Assembly: GCA_025829515.1 (NCBI GenBank) | Contig: GCA_025829515.1_4865.1 | DNA length: 64,000 nucleotides | Direction: 5' to 3' (one strand) | DNA from: a phage | In this document: positions 2 through 42,944 of the stretch, one piece after another | Numbering within the stretch: the stretch's first letter is position 1 | Layout: every line of letters begins with the position of its first letter | Translations under genes and position numbers: made by a program | Notes under the pieces: model-generated | Database searches by the model: none | Seen by the model: only the letters and a program-made list of their open reading frames with translations | What the model was told of the DNA's origin: nothing

Positions 2-2203
2 GTAAACGCCAAAGTTTACAACTCCATGGTGGAGCAATTAACCGGAATCACCAAAGAAATCAAAGAGTTAATTAATGGTGAGACCTTATTAACTGACGCC
101 ACTACCGAAGTTCGTCGTAAATGGTTTACGTTAATGTCAGAATCTGATCTGACGTACGTTGTTGGTTGCTATCGACGTTTGCGTAAACTCGCTTCCAGTT
201 TAAGTGGGGCCATTGAGCACACCGGCCGTAAAATCGGTGAGGCAAAAATGCGCGTGGTGGACGATGAAGAAGATCGTGCACGTTTGGAAGTTCGTTTGAA
301 AGAACTCGATGCTGAGCTTCAGGAATTAAACCGCACAATTGAAGCGAGACCCGGTTTAGATAATGCCGTTTCGGTTGATAGTATCCGGAAACGCATTGCT
401 TCGTTGCAACCGGCTGTAAAACTCATTATGGAACGTTATGGCGTTCTGCCTTCTGACGAACTGATTAACGAGTTTCAAAGTCGTGTGGTTGCCTGGCGTG
501 AGCAAGCTGCCTCTGCTGAAACTGAATGCAACATGTACAATAAAGAGTTGTCACAGCTACTGGATGAGGAGTCGCGTCAAGCGTATCTGATGCGCAACCA
601 TACCGGTCTAAAACAAACAATCGACAGCTTAAAACAGGAACTGGCAACGTTCCAACAGAACTGGATGTTCCCGGCTCTGTTTGAAGGTACCCGCATTGAT
701 GTGGATAGCATTCAGAACGCGTTAAACGATGCCTGTAACTGGAATTTACCGTTGTCCATGCATCTGGACCAGTTAAAGACAACAGATCGCCTGGGAGCGT
801 TAGAGAAGCGTTTACAGGGTATGGATTTAACCTCTGCGGGTCTATCTGAAAAGCTGCAACGTTGTGAGAATGTGCTACACGGTTTATACCACGACCGTCA
901 ACACTTCTTAGAAACTGCAGAAGTTGATTGTCCACAGTGTAACCACCGTTTCCGTCCTGGGATTCGTAAGTCGTTACCTGAAATTGAAAAGGCCATCAAC
1001 GATAATGAAGGTTGGAAGAAGCAGCTGAAAGACGAAATGGATAGTCTTTTGCGTGACCGCAAAGAGATTGAAGAGGACGTCCGTAGCTTACGTACGATTC
1101 GCGAAATCGTCATGTCGTATTCCAACCATCCTGTTGTCGGTTTGTTTTTCCGTAAACTGCAGGAGCTGGATATCTTCACCACGGCGCGGGATCGTTATGG
1201 TGCCATTGCACGTGCCTTTACCGAAGAGTTAGATTCGGCCATGATGTATCTGCGTCAATCAGCGAAGCTTGCAACAGCGGAACGGGAATGGCAAGAGGCT
1301 GTTGCCGCAGTAGGTAATGTTGATGGTGCGCTGAGCCAGAAAATTGAACATATCCGTTCACAACTGGACGGGGCTAACCGTCGACTGATAGAATACCGCA
1401 GACAAGCCAATGAGCTGGAACGCGAAACCACCCAACTGCAACAAACCAAAGAAGCAATCGAACGTTTCCAAAAAGGCTACGAACATCTGGTATCGGAAAT
1501 GAACATCTCCGTTAACAACGTCGTGGTTCGCGAGTTGTTAAACCGACGCGAAGCGAAGCTCGATGCGTACACTTCCGCTCGTGAACGGTTTCGTCAAATG
1601 GAAGGGGCTATTGCACGTTTAGCGGAATTGGAAAAAGAGCAAGCTGAGTTGCTCAAAGAACACCATCATGCCAGATTGATTATCAATGCCGTCTCACCCG
1701 AAAAAGGATTATTGCGTCGTTACTTTTATGCTGCGATTACCCGCATCATGGATTTAATGAATCGGTATATCGAAATGGTGTGGGCATATCCGATGCAGGT
1801 TATTCCATGCGATCTAACCGACGGGGATTTGGATTATACTTTCCCGGTGCGATTAAAAGACCATGAAGAACTGGTGCCGGATGTGAAGAAAGGTTCAAAA
1901 GCACAGCGTATCATTTTCAACATGATGTTTCGTTTAACGGCGTATAAAGCACTTGGTTTACAAAATTATCCTTTGTTATTGGATGAACCATCTGAAGGCA
2001 TGGATGAAGAACACAAAAACCGATTAGTTAACTTCATTAAATCGTTGGCGTTGTCGGGAGAGTTTTCTCAATTGCTGGTCGTTTCGCATGAAGCGGAAGT
2101 TCATTCTAAACTTAACGAAGCCACCTACTGTGTCGTAGAACCAGAAGGTGTAACGCTTCCACCGGTGTATAACGAAGGGGTAATAATCAAATATGCATCA
2201 TAA
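2..2203 (+). CDS. Rad50/SbcC-like coiled-coil ATPase, C-terminal portion (5' end lies outside the window)
   Basis: Frame is open to the window edge; long coiled-coil-like region; CPQC zinc-hook motif at 928-939; Walker B LLLDEP near 1969-1989 and H-loop VVSHE near the C-terminus. Confidence 0.7.
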   Translation, partial: VNAKVYNSMVEQLTGITKEIKELINGETLLTDATTEVRRKWFTLMSESDLTYVVGCYRRLRKLASSLSGAIEHTGRKIGEAKMRVVDDEEDRARLEVRLKELDAELQELNRTIEARPGLDNAVSVDSIRKRIASLQPAVKLIMERYGVLPSDELINEFQSRVVAWREQAASAETECNMYNKELSQLLDEESRQAYLMRNHTGLKQTIDSLKQELATFQQNWMFPALFEGTRIDVDSIQNALNDACNWNLPLSMHLDQLKTTDRLGALEKRLQGMDLTSAGLSEKLQRCENVLHGLYHDRQHFLETAEVDCPQCNHRFRPGIRKSLPEIEKAINDNEGWKKQLKDEMDSLLRDRKEIEEDVRSLRTIREIVMSYSNHPVVGLFFRKLQELDIFTTARDRYGAIARAFTEELDSAMMYLRQSAKLATAEREWQEAVAAVGNVDGALSQKIEHIRSQLDGANRRLIEYRRQANELERETTQLQQTKEAIERFQKGYEHLVSEMNISVNNVVVRELLNRREAKLDAYTSARERFRQMEGAIARLAELEKEQAELLKEHHHARLIINAVSPEKGLLRRYFYAAITRIMDLMNRYIEMVWAYPMQVIPCDLTDGDLDYTFPVRLKDHEELVPDVKKGSKAQRIIFNMMFRLTAYKALGLQNYPLLLDEPSEGMDEEHKNRLVNFIKSLALSGEFSQLLVVSHEAEVHSKLNEATYCVVEPEGVTLPPVYNEGVIIKYAS

Positions 2204-2384
2204 AGGTTGGCGCTTATGGGCTTGGTGGGGTTTTCAGTTCCTTCAGTTTGTTGTGATGGTACTGTACCTCTCCTTTTGTGCAACCGTAGTGGTTATCGCT
2301 GCGGTCGTTTATTTAGCTGCTGCTCTTAAAGAACGTCTGTTCGACACGCGTTGTGAGTGGCGAGATATAGGGGAACGGACATGA
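2193..2384 (+). CDS. small hydrophobic membrane protein (63 aa)
   Basis: ORF with a long hydrophobic stretch (FVVMVLYLSFCATVVVIAAVVYLAAAL); first of a coupled small-ORF cassette. Confidence 0.4.
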   Translation: MHHKGWRLWAWWGFQFLQFVVMVLYLSFCATVVVIAAVVYLAAALKERLFDTRCEWRDIGERT

Positions 2385-2485
2385 TTGAAGGTATCGTATT
2401 AACCGGTATTGCACTGTGGTTGATTCGTGGTGCCTGGGGTTGGATTATCCGCACGAAAGGATGGGCGTTCCATGGCAACACGTAA
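2381..2485 (+). CDS. small transmembrane peptide (34 aa)
   Basis: ATGA overlap with upstream ORF; AGGGGA ribosome-binding site 7 nt upstream; single hydrophobic helix; below the ORF-track size cutoff. Confidence 0.35.
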   Translation: MIEGIVLTGIALWLIRGAWGWIIRTKGWAFHGNT

Positions 2486-2675
2486 ACCACGTCGCTTAAA
2501 ATCTTGGGCGGTTGTGATAATGCACACTGTAGTGTTGCTGGGTATTTTCTTGTCTCGTGCCACGCCTGCCTTTTGGGGCTTAGTTGTTTTGGTGTTCTTA
2601 GAAGGGGTTTACTTCGGTAATCTGTGGAGCAAGCCCCCGCGTTTAAGGGACCCGGCTTATGACAGTCGTGAATAG
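2472..2675 (+). CDS. small membrane protein (about 67 aa, two hydrophobic segments)
   Basis: Internal ATG at 2472 preferred over the track start 2427; basic N-terminus followed by hydrophobic segments. Confidence 0.4.
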   Translation: MATRKPRRLKSWAVVIMHTVVLLGIFLSRATPAFWGLVVLVFLEGVYFGNLWSKPPRLRDPAYDSRE

Positions 2676-2790
2676 TGTCAACGCGGCGATGATTGCAACG
2701 GGTGCGTATGACGGTGCCACATGGACAGATGTTGGTATCACGCTTATCATTTGCGCAATCGGAGCGTTTGTAGCAACATGGTTATTTTAG
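2659..2790 (+). CDS. small transmembrane peptide (43 aa)
   Basis: AAGGGA ribosome-binding site 8 nt upstream of ATG 2659; hydrophobic C-terminal half; overlaps neighbours. Confidence 0.35.
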   Translation: MTVVNSVNAAMIATGAYDGATWTDVGITLIICAIGAFVATWLF

Positions 2791-2885
2791 TGAAATGGGT
2801 TGGGTGTATCGTCTGTAGCCTGATACTAGGAGCGGGCGCATACGCCCTAGGCGCAATCCTTGCATTGACGCAAGGTTGGTTTTAA
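2790..2885 (+). CDS. small hydrophobic peptide (31 aa, GTG start)
   Basis: GTG overlapping the upstream TAG stop (translational coupling); almost entirely hydrophobic; no independent ribosome-binding site. Confidence 0.25.
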   Translation: MKWVGCIVCSLILGAGAYALGAILALTQGWF

Positions 2886-2903
2886 CAGGAGGGTAATTAC
2901 GAA

Positions 2904-3182
2904 GTGGGAGAAACGTCATGTAACAGTGAAACAGTCTCTGATCCCGTGGTCGTGGGTTCAGGGGCGGCCGAGCCAACCCGGCGTATCGTTCTTTCGGGCG
3001 TGGGGATGGCTATAGGGTCTTCAAAGAACCTTCTAGCAGACATCGCGGAAGTCTGCGGGCCGGATGATTTTGCAGTTTCACGTACAGTCGGGGAAGACTG
3101 GCGTGGTAATCAGAAGCGCCATGAGCGAATGTGGCGACGGAAGGTTACCTCAGCATCGCAGCGTTTTCAACGACGTTGTTGA
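2904..3182 (+). CDS. hypothetical protein (GTG start), in a GC-rich patch
   Basis: AGGAGGG ribosome-binding site upstream of GTG 2904; composition atypical for the window, so coding status uncertain. Confidence 0.3.
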   Translation: MGETSCNSETVSDPVVVGSGAAEPTRRIVLSGVGMAIGSSKNLLADIAEVCGPDDFAVSRTVGEDWRGNQKRHERMWRRKVTSASQRFQRRC

Positions 3183-3301
3183 TCAAAGACACGGTTCCGA
3201 TAGAGAACTGGTCTTTACCTGCAGCGGTATACACCGCTAAGCTTTACCGGTAAACTTAAGAAAACACAAACGCAATTCTTCGTTACTCGCTTTCATCGCA
3301 G

Positions 3302-3817
3302 GTGAAAGCTCACTTAGGAATTCAGCTCATGGCCGAAATTGTCATTCTTTCCTCATCCTCAGATTTAACGGAAGCACAAAATAAACAGCTGTTGGGGCTG
3401 CATTATAAATTTCTGAACCACCAACGTACCATACTCCATATCGAAAAAGGTGAGATTCCGAACCTCACTCTGGAGAAACTGTTGGCGGGGAACCGTGCCT
3501 GCGTTGCTCTGGAAGGGGGCACCCCTGTTGGTTACTGTTTGTATCGCGTAATCGCTGGGGTTCTGAAGATTCGTACGATGTTCGTGTCCGAAATGGCACG
3601 CCGTCGCAAAACGATGACGCAGATTTTTGATGCGCTTGATGTGAATGAGCAGTTCACCAGTGCGCATGGGGGAATATACGCTTGCCAGGAAGCTGGTATT
3701 GCGTTCTTTACCGCTCGCGGTTTTGACAAGACCGTCTCTACAGACGGACAATGGCTTGAATTTAAGAAGCAGGTTCCTGCGGAAGCAGATGAACCTTTAA
3801 GGACTGCGGTAGCATAG
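3302..3817 (+). CDS. hypothetical protein (weak acetyltransferase-like resemblance, unverified)
   Basis: ORF in + strand gene array; alternative ATG at 3329. Confidence 0.45.
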   Translation: MKAHLGIQLMAEIVILSSSSDLTEAQNKQLLGLHYKFLNHQRTILHIEKGEIPNLTLEKLLAGNRACVALEGGTPVGYCLYRVIAGVLKIRTMFVSEMARRRKTMTQIFDALDVNEQFTSAHGGIYACQEAGIAFFTARGFDKTVSTDGQWLEFKKQVPAEADEPLRTAVA

Positions 3818-3887
3818 TCCTGTTTTAGCACTCCTTACGATTATGCCTCACTATGAGTGGGGTATTTTTACGCGAGGAGTGCTATTT

Positions 3888-4106
3888 ATGTTTCACCGTC
3901 CTGGGTTTTCAGCTTTAAACACCGATGTCTGTTGGGCTGAGTACGAGCGGGTGAAGGAGTTCTTACCCGTAAATCCTAAACACATCAACGTGGGTACTAT
4001 CGGGCGTGTTGCGTTCGATGATACTCCGCTGAGTACGTGTATTAAAGCAGCGCTTGGTACGCTGCCTGAGCCTCACCACCACGACTGGGAGGCAACTTTA
4101 CCCTAA
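3888..4106 (+). CDS. hypothetical protein
   Basis: GAGGAG ribosome-binding site 8 nt upstream of ATG 3888 (track start 3843 is in frame upstream). Confidence 0.4.
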   Translation: MFHRPGFSALNTDVCWAEYERVKEFLPVNPKHINVGTIGRVAFDDTPLSTCIKAALGTLPEPHHHDWEATLP

Positions 4107-4117
4107 GGAGCATTAAA

Positions 4118-4540
4118 ATGGTTACCGCTATTCGCGAAACAAAATCACTATACGATCATTTATCAGAAGAAGAAACAGCCTTATTCTACGACCTGTTACC
4201 TGAAACCAAAGCAAACGTTCAGTGGTGGTTACGTTTAGCGCTACGTGATAAAGTTGGGGAAACGCCGGTTAGTATTCTCGCGCACACGTTGGACATGACG
4301 CCCATGATTGAAATCGCGATTACCCGCCCTAAATTCTGGCGGCCTGGTATGGTGCGTGAGGCGTATCTACTCCAACGCTTAGGTGTTGACCCGGAGAAGT
4401 GTTGGCGTAAGATGGACGACCATCGCTACCGTGAAGAAATTACGAATAGCCTCAACACTATGTTGGCAATGAAACGGCTCGGTATCGAACACGAAGGTTT
4501 CGAGTCAGCGGTAAAAGCCTGGGTGAAAAGGAATAGCTAA
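4118..4540 (+). CDS. hypothetical protein
   Basis: TAAGGAG ribosome-binding site upstream of ATG. Confidence 0.6.
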   Translation: MVTAIRETKSLYDHLSEEETALFYDLLPETKANVQWWLRLALRDKVGETPVSILAHTLDMTPMIEIAITRPKFWRPGMVREAYLLQRLGVDPEKCWRKMDDHRYREEITNSLNTMLAMKRLGIEHEGFESAVKAWVKRNS

Positions 4541-5339: not shown

Positions 5340-6062
5340 ATGTTTCGCACCATTTTATTTCTTCTGGTAGCAATGACTACGTTCAACAGCAACGCTTCTT
5401 ACCAGACCACCAGTAACAAACACCAAAAAGAATTCGTCCTTATCCAGGACCAGTTCAATGAGATTAAACCTCTCATCGTCACCGCATCTCGAAAACAAGG
5501 CGTACATGCCGGGATGCTCGCGACCACCATTTATCGTGAATCCCGTTTTAATAAAAACGTGGGTAAGAATAAATCGAGCAGTGCTAGTAGTGTTGTCCAA
5601 ATGACGACAGGCACTAAACGCTCCATGATACGTCTGTATGGGAAACAACTTAACATCCCAAAGAATGCGGACCTTAATAAACCGAAGTATGCTGTACAGC
5701 TTGCTGCCGTTTACATGAAACACATCGAGGATCATCTGACAAAACAACTCAAACGCAAGCCGAGCACAGCCGAAATCGCTTTAGGCTACCGCTTCGGTGA
5801 GGGTGCTGCTGTTGCGATGATTAAAAAGAAATCACCGGTCGGGAAACGCTGGATGGCCAGCTACCGAAAAGACGCAGCATTCTACGGTGCGAAAATGACA
5901 CCACCGAAAGCTGAAACACGTCAGCTTGCTTTTGCGAAGGAAGACCGCGACCAACGCGTCGCTGAGCTTCAGAAAATCTGGGATACGCTGTACACCAAAA
6001 TATCACCTGCGGCCGGTACATTACTGGCAAATAACACTATCATGAAAGGAGCATTGCTTTGA
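5340..6062 (+). CDS. secreted lytic transglycosylase-like protein (SLT domain with N-terminal signal sequence)
   Basis: Hydrophobic N-terminus MFRTILFLLVAMTTF; catalytic-type motif YRESRFN followed by SSASSVVQMTTGT. Confidence 0.65.
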   Translation: MFRTILFLLVAMTTFNSNASYQTTSNKHQKEFVLIQDQFNEIKPLIVTASRKQGVHAGMLATTIYRESRFNKNVGKNKSSSASSVVQMTTGTKRSMIRLYGKQLNIPKNADLNKPKYAVQLAAVYMKHIEDHLTKQLKRKPSTAEIALGYRFGEGAAVAMIKKKSPVGKRWMASYRKDAAFYGAKMTPPKAETRQLAFAKEDRDQRVAELQKIWDTLYTKISPAAGTLLANNTIMKGALL

Positions 6063-6657: not shown

Positions 6658-6690
6658 GGTCAGACCTTCGGGTCTGACCACCTTTTATTT
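6658..6690 (+). terminator. intrinsic terminator hairpin
   Basis: GGTCAGACC-TTCG-GGTCTGACC stem-loop followed by a T-rich tract. Confidence 0.6.
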
Positions 6691-6703: not shown

Positions 6704-6970
6704 GTGTTCGTGAAACGTTTAATAAATTTTCTCTACTGGATGGAGAAACGCTATAGCCACAACATTCCGATGATGTATAGTTTGTTATTCTCCACGGTAA
6801 TGTTGGTAATCGGTGCGATCGTCGCACATCTGATGGAACTCACGTCCCCATGGGCGCAACTCTTTCTTACCATCTGGATGTTGTTCTCAGGCTACCACAT
6901 ACGTGGTTTCATAACCCGATTCTTTCGCTGGCGGAGTACCTGGCACGTCTTTAATTCCGACCGTAACTAG
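6704..6970 (+). CDS. small membrane protein
   Basis: Two hydrophobic segments; start codon uncertain (GTG 6704 or downstream ATG). Confidence 0.4.
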   Translation: MFVKRLINFLYWMEKRYSHNIPMMYSLLFSTVMLVIGAIVAHLMELTSPWAQLFLTIWMLFSGYHIRGFITRFFRWRSTWHVFNSDRN

Positions 6971-10253: not shown

Positions 10254-10769
10254 GTGAGCATGATAGCATCAGTTTTCAAACTGCTTCCATTCTTACAGAT
10301 GCTGTGGGAAGCATTTAAACCGGGCGAGGGGGAGAAAGTAACACGAGCCGGGAAAATAGTGACACTAGTGATAGTGGCACTGATCGCGTTCTCTGCATTT
10401 GTCTCATATGCCTATATTGTTCAATACCACACACTGGTTAGCGTTCAATCGCGTACTCAGTATCTGGAGATATCCTATAAGGAGCTAAAAGAGAAGTCCG
10501 ATCATAGCGAAGTGGAGAACAATAAGTTGTACGATCGTCTCTTCACGTGCCTGGGTTCTCGACCGCCATATGATGGTACCAAATCTCCAACAGGAACAGG
10601 CACTGAGGCCGCGGTTCCGCCTGTAGATCTCAAGCCGGTAACACCGCCGGCACCGTTAAATCCGTCTAGCCCACCTGCCAAGAAATACCAGGCCGCTTCT
10701 CGCCCGGTAGGGTCGCAGGAGGCAAATGATTTCCGACAGGAGATTATCAGTACGCTTAATAATCCATGA
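10254..10769 (+). CDS. membrane protein with transmembrane anchor, coiled-coil segment and Pro-rich tail (i-spanin-like candidate)
   Basis: Hydrophobic helix IVTLVIVALIAFSAFVSYAYIV; heptad-like segment; PVTPPAPLNPSSPP tail. Confidence 0.5.
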   Translation: MSMIASVFKLLPFLQMLWEAFKPGEGEKVTRAGKIVTLVIVALIAFSAFVSYAYIVQYHTLVSVQSRTQYLEISYKELKEKSDHSEVENNKLYDRLFTCLGSRPPYDGTKSPTGTGTEAAVPPVDLKPVTPPAPLNPSSPPAKKYQAASRPVGSQEANDFRQEIISTLNNP

Positions 10770-10778
10770 GGAGTATAC

Positions 10779-11258
10779 ATGAAGTTATTTTTGGTGGCGA
10801 TACTGGTGCTATTGTTGACAGGATGCCCTGGAGCCATCCGTCACGTAGACCCAGATTACTCCTCAACCGGAGATTGGCCTTTTCGTCCTTTAGAACACCC
10901 ACCAGTTTATGCTGGTGGGAACAGTCCTGAGGTGAAAAAGCTGGCAGGGAAAATGTTTGTTGCGGATGTGAACGCTTATGCTTATTACGTTTATCTGTAC
11001 GCTAAGTCGTTGAACAATTACGCAGAAGCTAAGGGGTGGCGCACCCCGATGGCCGCACCGCTTTGTGAAGAGTTTATTCGCCCCACTCTTCATGATATAC
11101 CCTCCGGGATATATCTCGACCCTGGTTCTCGTAGCCCTCAAGACATTAGTCGTGATTTGTCACGACAGATTAAGTCTCTCATTCGCAGCTATCGCGAAGA
11201 CAGAGAGTCTTTTAATCATGCCTACGAACGGCACAAAAGTAGTTGCCTTGTGCAATGA
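10779..11258 (+). CDS. lipoprotein (o-spanin-like candidate)
   Basis: GAGGAG ribosome-binding site; signal peptide ending in lipobox LLTGC. Confidence 0.6.
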   Translation: MKLFLVAILVLLLTGCPGAIRHVDPDYSSTGDWPFRPLEHPPVYAGGNSPEVKKLAGKMFVADVNAYAYYVYLYAKSLNNYAEAKGWRTPMAAPLCEEFIRPTLHDIPSGIYLDPGSRSPQDISRDLSRQIKSLIRSYREDRESFNHAYERHKSSCLVQ

Positions 11259-35822: not shown

Positions 35823-38800
35823 TTAGCTTGCTTTCCGACTTACGTTTAACGACGGTGTCGGTTGGGTTATTTCCTGCCTACGTGCAGCTGAGCCAGGAGG
35901 AGGCACATTTGCCGCTTGCTGGATACTACCACCCCGTGTGTCGTTTGCCGCTCTTGGATTTGATTTCAAAATATCACGAATCTCTTTCAAGTAATCGCGA
36001 GACTGAATCAGTACCTTGAGCTGCTGAACATCTATCGGGTCACCATTCAGCGTTGGCGTCGATGCTGTAGCATCAGAAGTTGGAGCGGCAACTGGACGAG
36101 CTGCTGCGTTAACCTGCGCTTCCGCGCCTGCTTTCACTTTAGCAACATCCGTCGCAGACAATCCTTCTGCTGCAGCTTGCGACGCTACGGTTTCGGCCGT
36201 TGTTGAGGCATCGGATGTTCCGGTACCGCCTGTGGTTGGTGTAGGTGCTGCTGGTCCTACATTACCTGCGGCGGTAGCCATTGCATCTTGTGCCGCCATG
36301 GCCCCTTTCTGCGTCAATACGTCATCACGACGATTAGCATTATCTGCTGGCAGGTTATCTGCCGGTGACAGACTCGGGTCATTAGCGGCCGGTGCACCCA
36401 TTGCTGCTGCCGGGTTGGTTGGTGAATTAGGCGACAAGCCTGCAACCATATCCTTCGTCTTGCTCGGATCGGCAGCGACTTCGTTGGCGGAAATTGCACC
36501 CATGCGGCGGTTCAGTTCCTGAATAACCCCATCTACGCTACGTATACGACCGTTGCTGTAGAAGACGTTGGCATTCCCTCTCAGTATTGCGGATGTAATC
36601 CCAGGAGCACTCGATGCCGCCATATTCGGATTACGCTTCCATGCTTCCAGGAATTTCTTACCGCCGCCTGCACCCAGGAAGTGGTACAGATAAGCCACGG
36701 CTGGAGGTGGTGCTTTACCACCCAGGTCACGTTGTGCTTTTTGGATGTTGTCACGAATGAACTGTACACCCAAAATAGCATTCGCCCACGGGTCCATCTG
36801 GTTAACACGCGGAATACCGAACTTCCGCGAATACCCCTTCATCATCCCGTCCCACGTACCGTTAACAAACTGGAACAACCCAGACGCCGAAGCATACGGG
36901 TTTTTAGCGGTGTAGTTAAAACCAGACTCCGCTTTTGCCATTGCTAACGCCACAGCAGGTGGCACGCCCATCATGTTCGCTGCATCGGTAATCAATGCTT
37001 TGATATTCGGAACGTTCAACGCACCCTTTCTACCCAACATTTCTATCGGGTATTTTTCAGCCAGTGACTTATAATCACCGTCTTTCACATCACTCAGGTT
37101 AATCGAAGACGAACCAGTGGTCATTGCAGCGTAGTTCCGCACACCGCCAACCGCATCGACGACTTGACCCAAGTTACCCGGCACACCACCACTCGTACCC
37201 GATGGAATGTAGCCTGAGGCGCGAGCACCGTCAGATGACAAAGAATCTCCCGAACTGATGTTCGAGTCTTCTTCATCTTCACCGGTAACTTCCAGAGAAC
37301 TGCGGTTCTTGTTACGATCCTTCCAGCGTGCACGCTTGCCATTATTTTTAATGGCTTTAATCATGTTACGCACGGCAAGGTCAGCTTCTTTTGACAACAG
37401 CTTCAGCGTTTCCAGCTCGGCTTTGATAGACGATGGGTTCGTGTTAGCATCGCCCCCTAATGGGTTGATATTCACTTCCCACACCGACTGTCTTATACCG
37501 CCTTTCAAGCTATAAGCTGTTGACATCATCAAACTGATTTCGTACAGGTAACCGCCGGTCAGTTTCAAGTTCAGCGGATCGGCTGTTGGCAGGTAGCGTT
37601 TCACCCCAACCAAATACGTCATGAATACCGGTAAGAAGCGGTCAAAGAACCACCGTTTCAAACGATCTTCTTTCGGTGTGCCGATAGCGTCTGGAACCAT
37701 CGAAGCGATGGCTTTCTTCCAGTCACCTTTATAACTTGCGGTTTTCACGTCGATGTCTTTGATGACGTTCTTCTCGAATACCGTAATCAACGTGCGTGTG
37801 GCGTTGTCGATGGTGGTAAAACCATAAGTCTTCCAACGTACCGACTCCATCGCATTCATGTCTTTCTGGTCGAGCACCGCGTTCCAGTCTACCTGAATCT
37901 GAACCTGCTCTGTTCCGTCTTCCCAACCTTCTACCTTCGCCAGATTTTTATTACGTTCGTTATCCAACTGTCCAAGTTTGTTGATAGCTTCATCAACACC
38001 CGCGGACTTAATCCCCTCCACGGCCGGTGCCATTCCGTACTTACGTGCTTTCTTATCGTCCATTCTGAACTTGATTGCACGCTCGACTTCATTCTGCACT
38101 TCCATAACCTCTTCACCGCTCAAAAACTCCTTCGGTGTAAAGGTTACAACGTCCCAGGCTTTCGAGAAGAAGCCTTGGTTGACTTTGCGTGGGTCTGTTA
38201 ACGAAGAGAACGCTTTTGCATCCTTAGTCATCTTCATTTTGTTGAAGAGTGTCTGCATGTCCTCTTTCGATACTTTCTTAGCATCGCCGACGTCAGCCAA
38301 CTGGATACTATTCGGCATTGATTTCAGTGCCGTAATCCAGCGGAGATAAATCGGAATAAAGCGCTGAAGCATAAACGCTTGGAAGGCCAACATCTCGCCT
38401 TTTTCCTCAACGTTAATACCGAACCCTTCAGCTAACTTCTGAACGTCTTTTCCACCTAGCCCACGGAGACTGGCTTGGCCATCTTCCGCGTAAGACACAT
38501 ACTCACGCAATGCGTCTTCTAAGTAACGCGCCTTCGCCCCGTCATCCGACGACCACTTATCGTAATCACGGAAACCGTACTGAGCTAAACGCATCTTATC
38601 CAGGTACTGGGTATAGGTAGTCGTTGCGATCTTGTACGCGGCGTAACCTGCCGCGGCGATCGCACCACCGATAAGAATTGCCGGCCAGCCCACTGCTGTC
38701 ACGACGGCAGATGCCGCAGTTGCCACAGCGGACACCGCGGGTGCCGCCAAACGGGTTACTGCGAACTTACCAACATTCCACGCAGCCTTACCTAAAAGAC

Positions 38801-41800
38801 CTACGGGTTTTAACACACCCCATTTCGTGATAGAACCGAGTATATTACCCACAGTTCCCAAGATACTGACGATGGGACCGATGATAGGTAAGCCTTTCAC
38901 CACATCCCACAGACCGCCAGATTTCCCTTTGGAGCCCTGCGCTTTCTCTTTCTTCTCCTTACGTTTCTCACGCCAACGTTTGAAGAAGTTAAAGTAGTCG
39001 CGTTTTTCATCACCTTCAGGTGGCTTGTTACGTTTACCGAACTTCGCAAACATGGTACGGATGATGCCATCGTCACCGCCTGCGCGGGATACTGATTCGC
39101 GCATGGTGTTAAACCACGACATCTCTTGCAAGCCAATCATTCGGTCCAAGCGTTCAAACAATCTTGCACCTGCAGATTTGGCAGCGTTCTTCCCTTTGTT
39201 GATAACCCGACCTGCTGCATCGCGCGCGGTCTCAAGGTCGTCCTTCGCGTCACCGTAGACTTTACGGCCAGAAAGACCACCTTTCGCGTTCAGATGACTG
39301 CGATAGAATTCAGCGACATCATCATCGCGTCCTGCCAATCGACGTTCAACTTCGTAGCGTGTGGCAATGTCGTGTCGTGCTCCACGATATCCGTCGAGCA
39401 TATCCCCAGCCCGGCCTCGGAAACCACTGAACCAACCACGCAGGCGGTCGCGTCCACGACCAAAGAACGCTTTTGTTCTTGACCAACGTCCACCAAAACG
39501 TTCAGACAACGACGATTTCGCACGATCATACGCCCCGCGTACTGCACGACCGATCGTACTACCGCCACCCCCGACACCCTTCTCCATTTCCTCTGTCCAA
39601 CTTTCGTCTTCCGGATCTCCCGGTAAACGTTGATTCAACAGTTTATAGATACGGATAAGAATGTGGTTGGTTTTCTTGCCGGTTGATGAGAAGATACTGA
39701 AACCGCCACCCCCACCATCTTTACGACCTTTCCACCAACGCGTTAGTGGGTTGTCGGTAATCATGTCTTTCAGACGATCGACACCACGTTTCGCAAAACC
39801 GAGCACTTTACCCGGTAAGCTCGTTACGCGGTTGAACGCTTTCTGGAGACGTGTCTTTTCTTCGCCTTCCGGAATCTCGTTCAGCCAGTCCTTAATCTTA
39901 CCAACGATGCTGCCCGCTTTCGGTGACAGGAAATCCAGGAACCTTTTCGGTAGCTTAGCCACCTTATTAAAGCCTAAGCCGATCTTACTGGCCAGACCTT
40001 GGGTCAGCGCTTGGATTTTCCCACCTTTATAGTAGCGGAGTTTACCGGCAGCGGCTAAGTCAGCGGCCGCTAGTACCAGGTTACCTGCGGAGTCAACAAT
40101 ATCACTCCCCAGTTTGATATCGTCCAGCGTTTTCAACTGAACCATTTTACCATCAATGACCTGATAGTATTCCCCAGCTTCCAGACGTGCACCTTGTAGA
40201 ACAACGTTACCGTGGTCATCGTAAACATCGCGGATACCCAGTAGTCCTTTACCGAAGGAACTTACCGCTTCAAAACCACCACGGACACTACCACTGATAA
40301 GGCCACGCATCCGGGTTAAGAAACCAGGACCTTCGCCACCTCCCATGCCTGCGACTTTACCGCGTGCCCAACCACCGAACTGGTTCAGTTTATTCCAGGC
40401 ACCCTTAACACCACGTTTCGCAAAGCCGCCGATTCCTGCTGCGGTGTCGAACAACACACCGCCCCAACGACGAATAAGCCCATCCTCACCGATGATAATA
40501 CGACGGCGTCTACCGCCACCGCTACCACCGCCAGGGCGAGGCGGACCCATTTCTTCATCACCAGAACCAGCACCCCCTGCTAACGAAGCCAGGAGAACCC
40601 CTTCTTCGTCCATACTTCTGACGTGTTCCAGAATTTTCTGGAGGGTGTCACTGTTGTTGTTACCCCGAATCGCTTCGATGATACCGTCAAAGTTATTCCG
40701 TGGTGCTTCTTCGCCACGGTTACGTTGACTCAACAATTCAACAAAGTTAGTCGAAGTTTCACCGTAGAGAACTGCGGCTAGCTGCCGAGGCGACATTCCG
40801 CGGCCTTTACCACCGCCACGTAAAGCCGGCGGCAACGACGTGTCATCGGCACCACCACTTGCCCCTTGGTTCATTCGGCGCAGATAGTCGCCTAACGCCG
40901 AACCATTTTGCAGCTTACGTTGAATCTCCTGGTCACGAGTCAATGCACGCCCGCTGCGTGTCTTACCCATTGCCAAGTCATTAAACAAGGTATAGGGATC
41001 GGACAGGTCTTTATCCACGCCGAAGGTGTCACTCTTCGCGTCGTAGTTAAAGATACCCGCATCACGCAACGCTCGCTCGCCGTAAATATTCACCGCCTCG
41101 TCGATAATTGCCTGACGTTGGGTGATAGATGACTGCACTGTGGAGATTTTGCGAGCCAGTTCGTTACTTAATTCGTTGCTACCACCAGTAAGACTGTCTG
41201 AATGCCCCTGTAACGCTTCCTTAATGCGTTCTGCGGCGTTTCCTGGCATATACCGATGAAGATGCATCGGGTCTTTCAGAATCGCTTCTACGTCGAATGC
41301 GCGGCCCTGCGAGGCACGTGACTCGATATAGTCGGCAAGATGCTGTCGATCCTTCTGCGAGAGCGTTTTGCCACGGTCAACAAAATCCACAGTGCTGTTA
41401 ATGGAATTTTGGAGACGCAGGCGCTGCTCATCGTTTGCAACCGCTTTGCGTACACGGTTACCGACCACTTTGCGGTCCACGAAACCACGACTGGTGATGT
41501 CGTATTCCAGATCGGCATGTTCGCCATAGCCACGACGAACAGATTTGTTAATCTCTGCCAGCCAGGCAGGAATAACTTCAACCAGGCTAAGATACGCTTT
41601 ACGGTCAAACTTCGCCGAGCGACTTAACGTTTCGCCATTACGCTCATCAAGGAAGGCTTTCTCACGGTTTAACGGTTGGACAATACCGAGTTCATTCAGT
41701 ACCCGGAACAAATCCGCCAACGGTCCTTGCGTTTCGCCTGCGATAGCTGAGTTCGAGATAGAGGAAAGATTACCAAAGGTGAACGCGCCCTTCTGCAGGC

Positions 41801-42944
41801 GTTTCATGACCTCTGGATTTTTCTCCATCTCCTCACGAGTCCATTTCTGGAGTTTCTCGATTTGTGGGCCGAGTAGTTTCTTCGCAAGGAATCCGCTACC
41901 CCATGCAGTTGCTTTATCGCGAGCATTTGTTTTGCGACGTTCGGCAGTCAACGAAGAGCTGTCGCTCATGCCGAAACCGTCTTCAACACCCATGCCGAGA
42001 ACAGACTCTAACAAACCACGACCTTCGCCAAATATACCAGAAATTTTCTTCTTGGTATTTTCGCGAATCATGTCCATAAACCCGTCAGCATAACGCAATG
42101 GGTTCATCCATTCCGCAGCCTGGCGTTTAACGTTTGCCCAACGGACTTCTGAGAAATCTTCCTTCGCGTAGTCTGGCAGCGCCGTGTTCTTCACGATGGC
42201 TTCTAAAGCAGGCGTGTTACGATCGAACTCCGACTGCTTCATCTTCACGATGTCTTGAATGGCGAACAGGGTACGGTATTGCAATTCGAGTTTCTTACGC
42301 TCGATGTTTAAGAATACCCCACGGCTTAACCCGGTTAGCAGGTTAATGTCTTTCGCCATCCCAATCATGGTTTGGTGCATTGCATCCGCGCGCATCTCTT
42401 TGATGCTGTCGCGGAGCTTATCCTCTACCATGCGGTCCTGCAGCTGACGTTGTTCGTCGGCGTCCTTTGGCACGCCTGAGAAAACGTCGCCCAGTTCACG
42501 ATCCATCAACGCCTGATTAGGATCGTAATTTTGGTAATCCAACTGGTCAGATTTTGACCACTTGTCGAAGCGCTTAGTAACTGCATCCGGCAAGTATTTC
42601 TTCATCGTCGGACCGAGTTGGCGTGCTTGCATCTTCAGCGTGCGCTCGGTCTTCTCAAGCTCCCCTTTCGTATGGGCGTAAATGTCCTTTGCTGCAGCTG
42701 CCGCTGACTGATAGCCCTCGTATGCATCAGCTGCCGGCTTAGGCATCCCCTTGAGGATAACTTGGTCACGTTTCCCTTCTGGCCAGATAGTTGACAACGC
42801 CGACTTCCTGGCAACATTCAGGGTACTGAGTATCGGGCTTCGTTTTTTCTCGTCTTTGGGACGGGGTGGTTCACCGAAATCATCCCAGTCGTCGAGTCTA
42901 TCTAAATCGATATCATCGAAACCGTCTTTGCCTCTTTTTGCCAT
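35823..42944 (-). CDS. giant virion protein (2373 aa) with C-terminal lytic transglycosylase domain
   Basis: Uninterrupted 7.1 kb ORF; Gly-rich segments; AKAESGFNYTAKNPYASASGLFQFVNGTW (SLT catalytic region) about 380 aa from the C-terminus; Ala/Pro/Thr-rich tail. Confidence 0.85.
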   Translation of the reverse strand: MAKRGKDGFDDIDLDRLDDWDDFGEPPRPKDEKKRSPILSTLNVARKSALSTIWPEGKRDQVILKGMPKPAADAYEGYQSAAAAAKDIYAHTKGELEKTERTLKMQARQLGPTMKKYLPDAVTKRFDKWSKSDQLDYQNYDPNQALMDRELGDVFSGVPKDADEQRQLQDRMVEDKLRDSIKEMRADAMHQTMIGMAKDINLLTGLSRGVFLNIERKKLELQYRTLFAIQDIVKMKQSEFDRNTPALEAIVKNTALPDYAKEDFSEVRWANVKRQAAEWMNPLRYADGFMDMIRENTKKKISGIFGEGRGLLESVLGMGVEDGFGMSDSSSLTAERRKTNARDKATAWGSGFLAKKLLGPQIEKLQKWTREEMEKNPEVMKRLQKGAFTFGNLSSISNSAIAGETQGPLADLFRVLNELGIVQPLNREKAFLDERNGETLSRSAKFDRKAYLSLVEVIPAWLAEINKSVRRGYGEHADLEYDITSRGFVDRKVVGNRVRKAVANDEQRLRLQNSINSTVDFVDRGKTLSQKDRQHLADYIESRASQGRAFDVEAILKDPMHLHRYMPGNAAERIKEALQGHSDSLTGGSNELSNELARKISTVQSSITQRQAIIDEAVNIYGERALRDAGIFNYDAKSDTFGVDKDLSDPYTLFNDLAMGKTRSGRALTRDQEIQRKLQNGSALGDYLRRMNQGASGGADDTSLPPALRGGGKGRGMSPRQLAAVLYGETSTNFVELLSQRNRGEEAPRNNFDGIIEAIRGNNNSDTLQKILEHVRSMDEEGVLLASLAGGAGSGDEEMGPPRPGGGSGGGRRRRIIIGEDGLIRRWGGVLFDTAAGIGGFAKRGVKGAWNKLNQFGGWARGKVAGMGGGEGPGFLTRMRGLISGSVRGGFEAVSSFGKGLLGIRDVYDDHGNVVLQGARLEAGEYYQVIDGKMVQLKTLDDIKLGSDIVDSAGNLVLAAADLAAAGKLRYYKGGKIQALTQGLASKIGLGFNKVAKLPKRFLDFLSPKAGSIVGKIKDWLNEIPEGEEKTRLQKAFNRVTSLPGKVLGFAKRGVDRLKDMITDNPLTRWWKGRKDGGGGGFSIFSSTGKKTNHILIRIYKLLNQRLPGDPEDESWTEEMEKGVGGGGSTIGRAVRGAYDRAKSSLSERFGGRWSRTKAFFGRGRDRLRGWFSGFRGRAGDMLDGYRGARHDIATRYEVERRLAGRDDDVAEFYRSHLNAKGGLSGRKVYGDAKDDLETARDAAGRVINKGKNAAKSAGARLFERLDRMIGLQEMSWFNTMRESVSRAGGDDGIIRTMFAKFGKRNKPPEGDEKRDYFNFFKRWREKRKEKKEKAQGSKGKSGGLWDVVKGLPIIGPIVSILGTVGNILGSITKWGVLKPVGLLGKAAWNVGKFAVTRLAAPAVSAVATAASAVVTAVGWPAILIGGAIAAAGYAAYKIATTTYTQYLDKMRLAQYGFRDYDKWSSDDGAKARYLEDALREYVSYAEDGQASLRGLGGKDVQKLAEGFGINVEEKGEMLAFQAFMLQRFIPIYLRWITALKSMPNSIQLADVGDAKKVSKEDMQTLFNKMKMTKDAKAFSSLTDPRKVNQGFFSKAWDVVTFTPKEFLSGEEVMEVQNEVERAIKFRMDDKKARKYGMAPAVEGIKSAGVDEAINKLGQLDNERNKNLAKVEGWEDGTEQVQIQVDWNAVLDQKDMNAMESVRWKTYGFTTIDNATRTLITVFEKNVIKDIDVKTASYKGDWKKAIASMVPDAIGTPKEDRLKRWFFDRFLPVFMTYLVGVKRYLPTADPLNLKLTGGYLYEISLMMSTAYSLKGGIRQSVWEVNINPLGGDANTNPSSIKAELETLKLLSKEADLAVRNMIKAIKNNGKRARWKDRNKNRSSLEVTGEDEEDSNISSGDSLSSDGARASGYIPSGTSGGVPGNLGQVVDAVGGVRNYAAMTTGSSSINLSDVKDGDYKSLAEKYPIEMLGRKGALNVPNIKALITDAANMMGVPPAVALAMAKAESGFNYTAKNPYASASGLFQFVNGTWDGMMKGYSRKFGIPRVNQMDPWANAILGVQFIRDNIQKAQRDLGGKAPPPAVAYLYHFLGAGGGKKFLEAWKRNPNMAASSAPGITSAILRGNANVFYSNGRIRSVDGVIQELNRRMGAISANEVAADPSKTKDMVAGLSPNSPTNPAAAMGAPAANDPSLSPADNLPADNANRRDDVLTQKGAMAAQDAMATAAGNVGPAAPTPTTGGTGTSDASTTAETVASQAAAEGLSATDVAKVKAGAEAQVNAAARPVAAPTSDATASTPTLNGDPIDVQQLKVLIQSRDYLKEIRDILKSNPRAANDTRGGSIQQAANVPPPGSAARRQEITQPTPSLNVSRKAS

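Follow-up and report, generated by a model that had tools for sequence, protein, structure and literature searches.

What do five very small, overlapping and largely hydrophobic open reading frames (ORFs), packed against the end of a gene for an SbcC/Rad50-like ATPase, contribute to a jumbo phage, and are they genes at all? The question arises in a 64,000-nt stretch of phage DNA (GenBank assembly GCA_025829515.1, contig GCA_025829515.1_4865.1; hereafter the window), where a sequence-only reading, made without database searches, had proposed a cassette of five small transmembrane (TM) peptide genes downstream of a Rad50/SbcC-like gene. All five ORFs are indeed there on the + strand and overlap one another, and the upstream gene matches an SbcC-like family. 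By sequence identity the window belongs to a Seoulvirus, i.e. an SPN3US-like jumbo phage: positions 1800-3400 are 95-98% identical to ~34 Seoulvirus genomes (SPN3US, Lh1B, SEGD1 and the SPFM series among them), which are 240-kb jumbo phages infecting Salmonella and E. coli and kin of phiKZ. Comparison with these and more distant relatives identifies all five ORFs as bona fide genes for very small, predicted inner-membrane proteins. The features concerned are:

1-2203, + strand: SbcC/Rad50-like ATPase gene (3' part), homologous to SPN3US gp186 (phrog_77, SbcC-like, E 1e-77; SPN3US annotation)
2193-2384, + strand: ORF1 (SPN3US gp187), 63 amino acids (aa), ATG start
2381-2485, + strand: ORF2, 34 aa, ATG start
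2472-2675, + strand: ORF3 (SPN3US gp188), 67 aa, ATG start
2659-2790, + strand: ORF4 (SPN3US gp189), 43 aa, ATG start
2778-2885, + strand: ORF5 as corrected here, 35 aa, ATG start (earlier model: GTG at 2790, 31 aa, in frame and 12 nt downstream)

Selection is seen in the claimed frames. In alignments of the window with SPN3US, SPAsTU (69% nucleotide identity) and Erwinia phage pEa_SNUABM_29, Nei-Gojobori ratios of nonsynonymous to synonymous substitution (dN/dS) were 0.08-0.33 in these frames (ORF1 0.08-0.30; ORF2 0.09-0.29; ORF3 ~0.18; ORF4 0.08-0.16; ORF5 0.23-0.33) against ~1-3 when read one or two bases out of frame, and the same frame-specific pattern recurred in Erskinevirus and Wellingtonvirus where substitutions were unsaturated. 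All five ORFs were intact in nine of nine near relatives, among which variable sites fell at third codon positions in 12 of 18 cases for ORF1, 6 of 8 for ORF2 and 13 of 21 for both ORF3 and ORF4; those of ORF5 were not mainly third-position (3 of 8). The C-terminal ALTQGWF of ORF5 is, however, kept through differing synonymous codons, so that selection would act on the peptide rather than on an RNA hairpin: conservation of the hairpin at the 3' end of ORF5 was looked for across relatives and not found, the peptide motif being conserved instead. A search of positions 2000-4200 against Rfam returned no known RNA element at E up to 1. The stretch also stands out for its content of hydrophobic ORFs of at least 30 aa, six of which fall in 770 nt, whereas 2000 dinucleotide-preserving shuffles averaged 1.07 and reached five or more in 0.05% of cases (P ~0.0005), and only 1 of 634 sliding stretches across the 64-kb window held at least five, the array stretch being the maximum at six.

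A sceptic might still hold that these are chance ORFs in a T-rich, hydrophobic-looking stretch that are never translated, citing the erratic annotation of the locus (from none to all five called across twelve GenBank records) and the brevity of three ORFs, which at under 45 codons do fall below the usual size cutoff, as the sequence-only reading had remarked. We consider this highly improbable, and refuted to the extent that sequence comparison allows, because purifying selection is frame-specific, starts and overlaps are conserved, and the frames are intact in each relative that retains the DNA; the shuffle result and the survival of peptide motifs through synonymous changes argue in the same direction. 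The sequence-only reading had itself named, as evidence that would tell against it, the loss of the hydrophobic frames from related phages that keep the DNA, and we saw the opposite: frames were intact wherever the DNA was kept, and where ORF3 or ORF4 is missing, its DNA is missing too.

The genes are tightly interlocked. ORF1 begins within the last codons of sbcC, overlapping its stop region by 11 nt; ORF1 and ORF2 overlap by 4 nt (ATGA), ORF2 and ORF3 by 14 nt, and ORF3 and ORF4 by 17 nt, and Shine-Dalgarno-like purine-rich sequences (GGGG, AAGGA or AAGGGA) lie 6-12 nt upstream of the starts of ORF1-4. Start-stop overlaps of the forms ATGA and TAGTG had been proposed for the cassette; the former stands, between ORF1 and ORF2, but the latter depends on the GTG at 2790, which has no Shine-Dalgarno sequence and is probably the wrong start. 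We placed the start of ORF5 at the ATG at 2778 (MVILVKW...), most likely the correct one, because a product of 35 aa fits the homologues (34-39 aa in other genera, with six of the nine sequences at 35 aa) and the annotation of Lh1B, which agrees with a start at this ATG, and because of the missing Shine-Dalgarno sequence at 2790. With this start ORF4 and ORF5 overlap by 13 nt, as opposed to 1 nt (TAGTG) from the GTG. Expression of the array as one protein by programmed frameshifting was considered separately and ruled out by the ORFs' own conserved starts and Shine-Dalgarno sequences and by the clean gain and loss of single genes.

The expectation of hydrophobic peptides with helices was borne out, with at least one TM-like segment in each of the five, hydrophobic residues making up 49-71% of the sequences, Kyte-Doolittle 19-residue maxima of 1.7-2.7, and helices in the AlphaFold2 models of ORF1 and ORF3. 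ORF1 has a basic, Trp-rich N-terminus, then a hydrophobic stretch (~27-38 residues; TM-like segment at residues 19-37) and a charged C-terminal tail carrying the conserved motif RLFDxRCEWR, and was modelled as one long helix (pLDDT 87). In ORF2 a short N-terminal hydrophobic helix precedes a basic, Trp-rich W.WIIRTKGWAF. ORF3 combines a strongly basic N-terminus with a conserved C-terminal tail, PPxLRDPAYDxRE, and was modelled as a two-helix hairpin (helices 7-28 and 32-53, with a three-residue turn) in which the conserved His18 and Glu44 sit inside the helices. ORF4 is devoid of Lys and Arg, with an acidic, weakly hydrophobic N-terminal half and a C-terminal TM-like segment at residues 25-43 that ends ...WLF. 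ORF5 is predicted to form a single TM helix, with Lys and Arg confined to the vicinity of its N-terminus, and its C-terminal ALTQGWF-COOH is identical in seven of nine aligned sequences, the others being CLTQGWF in ChrisDB and SLCMGLF in Parshik. The WVGC of ORF5 was considered as a lipobox and rejected, as it is not one and is not conserved in SPAsTU. An all-against-all comparison showed that the five peptides are not paralogues.

Array content differs from genus to genus. SPAsTU (~69% nucleotide identity) has all five genes with overlaps unchanged, and pEa_SNUABM_29 has ORF1, ORF2, ORF4 and ORF5, ORF3 having been precisely deleted along with its DNA. Among distant relatives, gathered by anchoring on the SbcC C-terminus, the array is reduced in three further genera, all of Erwinia jumbo phages. 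Erskinevirus (Asesino and two IMG/VR genomes) carries ORF1-, ORF2-, ORF3- and ORF5-type genes and no ORF4, with ORF3' and ORF5' rejoined through an ATGA overlap; Machinavirus (Parshik and ChrisDB) has four small TM genes at matching positions, ORF2 and ORF5 being recognisable; and the slot in Wellingtonvirus (Kwan and pEa_SNUABM_11) holds an ORF1-like gene, a gene for a 128-aa soluble HExxH protein, an ORF2-like gene, two more TM protein genes and an ORF5-like gene. In all four genera a small TM gene abuts or overlaps the sbcC stop at the ORF1 position, and a basic 76-107-aa protein and then a GNAT acetyltransferase follow the array; the ORF1/ORF2 ATGA overlap is conserved in other genera too. 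Each of the four genera (Seoulvirus, Erskinevirus, Machinavirus and Wellingtonvirus) has a recognisable ORF2 and ORF5, the latter ending ALTQGWF in three of them, and ORF4 occurs in Seoulvirus genomes only. Further out, the array is absent after sbcC in phiKZ, RAY and pVa-21, in which no TM gene adjoins sbcC, and Derbicus has an unrelated 112-aa 2-TM protein there. On this comparative evidence ORF3 and ORF4 are dispensable add-ons, with ORF2 and ORF5 the genes recognisable in every genus, and the array as a whole occupies a clade-specific accessory slot between the sbcC-like gene and ORF6 plus the GNAT gene.

The Wellingtonvirus HExxH protein (AHEAVHAAWR; Kwan L017 3196-3582, pEa_SNUABM_11 L019 3196-3585) is under purifying selection (dN/dS 0.15) and matched no Pfam family. 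Some records of close relatives contain ambiguous bases or apparent frameshifts, e.g. Lh1B 2125-2364 (L002), with an altered ORF3 C-terminus, and the SPFM5-15 records, and BLAST matches to them fall into 14-24 pieces; these look like sequence-quality problems, not gene loss.

Homology searches found no functional family for ORF1-5 in Pfam, NCBIfam or PHROGs. Four of the five matched PHROG families of unknown function (ORF1 phrog_16515, ORF2 phrog_13448, ORF3 phrog_18173 and ORF4 phrog_29196; E 1e-8 to 1e-36), and the match of ORF5 was marginal (phrog_8626, E 0.011). ORF3 was found in five clusters of a 5.8-billion-protein collection, all from Seoulvirus-type contigs, and an exhaustive HMMER search recovered three representative clusters for ORF1 among 1.84 billion. 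ORF2 and ORF5 are too short for word-indexed search, and tblastn is powerless at this length, an identical match scoring 37 bits; we therefore scanned collections of viral, metagenome and genome sequences for ALTQGWF-stop in back-translated form, which returned small hydrophobic ORFs solely on ~240-250 kb jumbo-phage contigs. No true small hydrophobic ORF ended in this pattern in 185,579 bacterial and archaeal genomes, all bacterial matches being due to chance. As judged from these searches, the array families are clade-restricted ORFans.

The four PHROG families, annotation of each of the five genes in at least one related genome, and a discussion of gp187 in print were already available. What is new is the evidence of selection for all five genes and for ORF6, the corrected start of ORF5, and the separation of genes found in four genera from the dispensable ORF3 and ORF4. 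Annotation systematically passes over small membrane proteins: SPN3US annotates three of the five genes (gp187, gp188 and gp189) and misses the other two, in addition to calling what is probably the wrong frame next door, and SPAsTU annotates all five; ORF2, without annotation in SPN3US, is called in SEGD1 and SPAsTU, there from a longer start. The comparative evidence given here fixes gene models across Seoulvirus, Erskinevirus, Machinavirus and Wellingtonvirus. For nucleus-forming jumbo phages SPN3US serves as a genetic model, and phage-encoded membrane proteins are of interest in it because proheads assemble on the inner membrane and a membrane vesicle forms early in infection. ORF2 and ORF5, recognisable in all four genera, are the foremost peptides on the short list of candidates for testing. 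As a class, the array belongs among ordinary accessory small membrane proteins of phages, and nothing points beyond this.

What role might such proteins play? The array overlaps sbcC and runs on into ORF6 and a GNAT gene, behind which lies a conserved hairpin:

2904-3182, + strand: ORF6, 92 aa, GTG start with AGGAGG 7 nt upstream (phrog_15402), conserved after the array in four genera
3329-3817, + strand: GNAT-type acetyltransferase gene (SPN3US gp191; Acetyltransf_1, 21.3 bits against a cutoff of 20.7; annotation and synteny)
3828-3887, or to 3890 as more widely drawn, + strand: nested stem-loop and T-run, directly after the GNAT stop and before the next start codon (ATG 3888)

The reading that we tentatively favour, as a possibility, is that the five are accessory proteins of the inner membrane, expressed alongside replication and recombination genes and acting singly on the envelope or on host membrane proteins. 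The array would be transcribed together with sbcC, because the start of ORF1 falls within the end of sbcC, the array itself holds no strong promoter or terminator, and the hairpin follows the GNAT gene; it would be translated through re-initiation or coupling, as the geometry of each start overlapping the preceding stop suggests. The peptides would enter the Salmonella inner membrane in the replication phase rather than at the end of infection, with ORF3 expected as an N-in/C-in hairpin, ORF5 as N-in/C-out and ORF2 as N-out/C-in, and once inserted would serve as separate modifiers of the envelope, each gained or lost singly. The likeliest kind would be that of T4 Imm and Sp, i.e. superinfection exclusion and envelope protection. 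Neighbours of accessory and host-interaction type (the GNAT gene, and a macro-domain gene that also lies near the array) count in favour of an accessory role, as do families found in this clade alone and the absence of the array after sbcC in phiKZ, RAY and pVa-21. T4 Imm (83 aa, two TM helices) and Sp are, like the products predicted here, small inner-membrane proteins of accessory nature in a large lytic myovirus, and imm lies among replication genes (beside genes 42 and 43), not with the lysis genes. Imm is, however, the product of a single gene outside any overlapping array, and it shares no sequence similarity with the five peptides.

Several points weigh against this reading. No family match backs any specific role, among them the holin/antiholin, superinfection-exclusion and toxin/immunity functions offered by the sequence-only reading; BLASTP of the five peptides against T4 Imm gave a best E of 0.26 over 19 residues; the timing of expression is taken from gene order; superinfection exclusion is one of several roles that would suit small membrane proteins produced ahead of lysis; ORF1 was modelled by AlphaFold2 from a single sequence; and the topologies come from hydrophobicity scales and the positive-inside rule. 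An obligate five-subunit complex is unlikely, because the genes are gained and lost singly, and a lysis holin is unlikely as well.

Much of the same evidence would suit individual modulators of host inner-membrane proteins such as transporters, proteases, the divisome or membrane-bound defence effectors, comparable to bacterial small membrane proteins such as AcrZ, MgtS and KdpF. Lengths of 34-67 aa and a single-helix or hairpin architecture are in keeping with this, gene-by-gene gain and loss tracks genus and host (Salmonella as opposed to Erwinia), the strictly conserved short termini (ALTQGWF-COOH in ORF5, KGWAF in ORF2) resemble interaction motifs, and the GNAT and macro-domain neighbours suggest a host-interaction region. 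No target can be named, however, and this explanation is computationally indistinguishable from the favoured one; we rate it as rather unlikely.

The position of ORF1 raises a further possibility, namely that gp187, alone or with others of the array, tethers or regulates an SbcCD-like nuclease formed by gp186 and gp27. Miller et al. reportedly suggested that T4 gp46/gp47 are anchored to the membrane by gp47.1. Thomas et al. (2016, PMC5105663) raised gp187 as an SbcCD anchor in parallel to T4 gp47.1, and found gp186 of SPN3US to be essential from amber mutants. The start of ORF1 in the last sbcC codons, the recurrence of an ORF1-type TM gene against sbcC in four genera, and the different 2-TM protein that Derbicus carries at that position all speak for such a link. 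T4 gp47.1 (46 aa, a predicted membrane protein) is likewise the product of a tiny TM gene overlapping that of an SbcCD-type subunit (gene 47, sbcD), although it lies upstream of sbcD and the array downstream of sbcC, and its anchoring role is itself a suggestion. No similarity to any of the five peptides was found in gp47.1, or in T4 Imm, gp46.1 and gp46.2. Moreover, sbcC is conserved across phiKZ-like phages, yet it has no neighbouring TM gene in phiKZ, RAY and pVa-21, so the nuclease would not generally need such a partner. The phiKZ-like phages, SPN3US included, are reported to build a protein nucleus, and DNA enzymes would be expected inside it, away from the membrane. At most one gene of the five would be accounted for, and we regard nuclease anchoring as improbable. 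Still more doubtful, and close to speculation, is a new modular system of membrane micro-proteins tied to the recombination nuclease of nucleus-forming phages, e.g. one that connects the inner membrane with DNA-end processing or with the hand-over of the genome from early membrane vesicle to protein nucleus, or an ORF5 whose ALTQGWF-COOH, lying in the periplasm, engages a host protein there that binds C-termini, e.g. a PDZ protease, and so rewires envelope stress signalling; if true, either mechanism would be undescribed for any phage.

The sequence-only reading had also offered holin/antiholin-like functions, and the window contains candidate lysis genes with which the array can be compared:

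5340-6062, + strand: SLT-domain transglycosylase (SPN3US gp198, 'putative endolysin') with a cleavable-looking Sec signal peptide, MFRTILFLLVAMTTFNSNA, the apparent cut falling before SY
6704-6970, + strand: 88-aa protein (SPN3US gp200) with two hydrophobic helices and a sub-threshold match to DUF4231 (21.4 bits against a cutoff of 24.7)
10254-10769, + strand: spanin-like first gene, 171 aa, with a TM helix, a charged helical stretch with a predicted coiled coil and a proline-rich C-terminus
10779-11258, + strand: spanin-like second gene, 159 aa, with a lipoprotein signal, MKLFLVAILVLLLTGC, and lipobox LLTGC
35823-42944, - strand: 2373-aa protein, matching the transglycosylase domain of phiKZ gp144 better than any other in the window (E 4.5e-18)

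If the array timed lysis, ORF1 and/or ORF3 would be holins or pinholins of class II type, with the smaller peptides as antiholins or modulators, together controlling gp198. Holin-like size and topology are seen in ORF3 and less clearly in ORF1: both fall within the ~60-150 aa range and have TM helices, ORF3 (67 aa) with a predicted two-helix N-in/C-in hairpin, His18 and Glu44 in its helices and a charged C-terminal tail, and ORF1 (63 aa) carrying a charged tail as well. Holins of class II and pinholins such as the lambdoid phage 21 S68 share with ORF3, and possibly ORF1, a size of 60-70 aa, and with ORF3 the two helices, the predicted N-in/C-in topology and the hydrophilic C-terminal tail. The signal peptide of gp198 looks cleavable, from which holin-independent export would follow, and membrane depolarisation would then suffice; all genes from sbcC to gp199 are co-oriented, and phages such as P1 and Mu have clusters of several small TM proteins in their lysis regions.

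Context and family searches weaken the suggestion. Holin cassettes adjoin endolysin and spanin genes, and the array adjoins sbcC, with 2.45 kb, seven genes and the conserved T-run hairpin between it and gp198. Other candidates are nearer to gp198, namely the 88-aa gp200 homologue, a holin candidate with a strong intrinsic terminator (6658-6679) just upstream, and the spanin-like pair, which lies 7.4 kb from the array. Searched at E up to 1, Pfam, NCBIfam and PHROGs yielded no holin family. The C-terminal tails of ORF1 and ORF3 are net neutral, no dual-start motif of the class II kind is evident, ORF3 is dispensable in pEa_SNUABM_29, and ORF2, ORF4 and ORF5, at 34-43 aa, are to our knowledge below the size of characterised holins. 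None of the five peptides has spanin features, and none has a periplasmic domain longer than ~24 residues. In phiKZ the lysis cassette gp141-gp144 comprises an i-spanin, an o-spanin, a 131-aa class III holin, a cytoplasmic regulator and an endolysin, and its holin, gp142, the one holin characterised in a related phage, has a single TM helix and adjoins the endolysin gene (Manohar et al. 2026, PMC12894885). Like the array, it is a set of overlapping small envelope-directed genes in the same broad phage group, but the array has no lipoprotein, coiled-coil protein or enzyme. When the phiKZ lysis proteins were compared with the window, the transglycosylase domain alone was matched (in gp198 and in the 2373-aa protein, presumably a virion-associated lysin or tape-measure-like protein), and gp141-143 had no detectable homologue. 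The array is a poor candidate for the main holin because it abuts sbcC, has a hairpin downstream and competes with better lysis candidates elsewhere; these are probably not the phage's main lysis genes, and a part in lysis timing seems to us unlikely. Vibrio phage pVa-21 shares the gene order sbcC ... macro domain ... signal-peptide transglycosylase.

Downstream of the array, ORF6, probably in the same transcription unit, encodes a soluble protein whose C-terminus is basic (EDWRGNQKRHERMWRRK...); its dN/dS was 0.22-0.53 against distant relatives, 0.82 against the near-identical SPN3US and 0.26 in Erskinevirus. SPN3US calls another frame here, the 40-aa gp190 (window 3131-3253), which is probably spurious. 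The GNAT gene is, by synteny, the conserved downstream boundary of the module. The hairpin behind it has a folding energy of ~-30 to -34 kcal/mol and consists of an outer stem, AGCACTCCTTACG...CGCGAGGAGTGCT, which sequesters the ribosome-binding site, GAGGAG, of the gene that starts at ATG 3888, and an inner hairpin, CCTCAC-TATGA-GTGGGG, followed by the T-run. It is unique within the window, has no Rfam match and shows compensatory changes in its outer stem (AGCACTCC/GGAGTGCT vs AGCTCTCC/GGAGAGCT) among Seoulvirus, Erskinevirus and Machinavirus loci; it is likely to be a terminator or translational-control element that closes the sbcC-to-GNAT unit. A sigma-70 promoter scan did no better than on shuffled sequence and is irrelevant to a phage with its own RNA polymerases, and a search by k-mer counts for a conserved AT-rich early-promoter motif gave a lone over-represented 9-mer, TAACGAACT, whose eight copies have no common flanks. 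Beyond the hairpin, at window 4067-4104, ~550 nt present in SPN3US (L001 5268-5819) and carrying gp193 (172 aa) are missing, so that gp192 stands almost directly before gp194.

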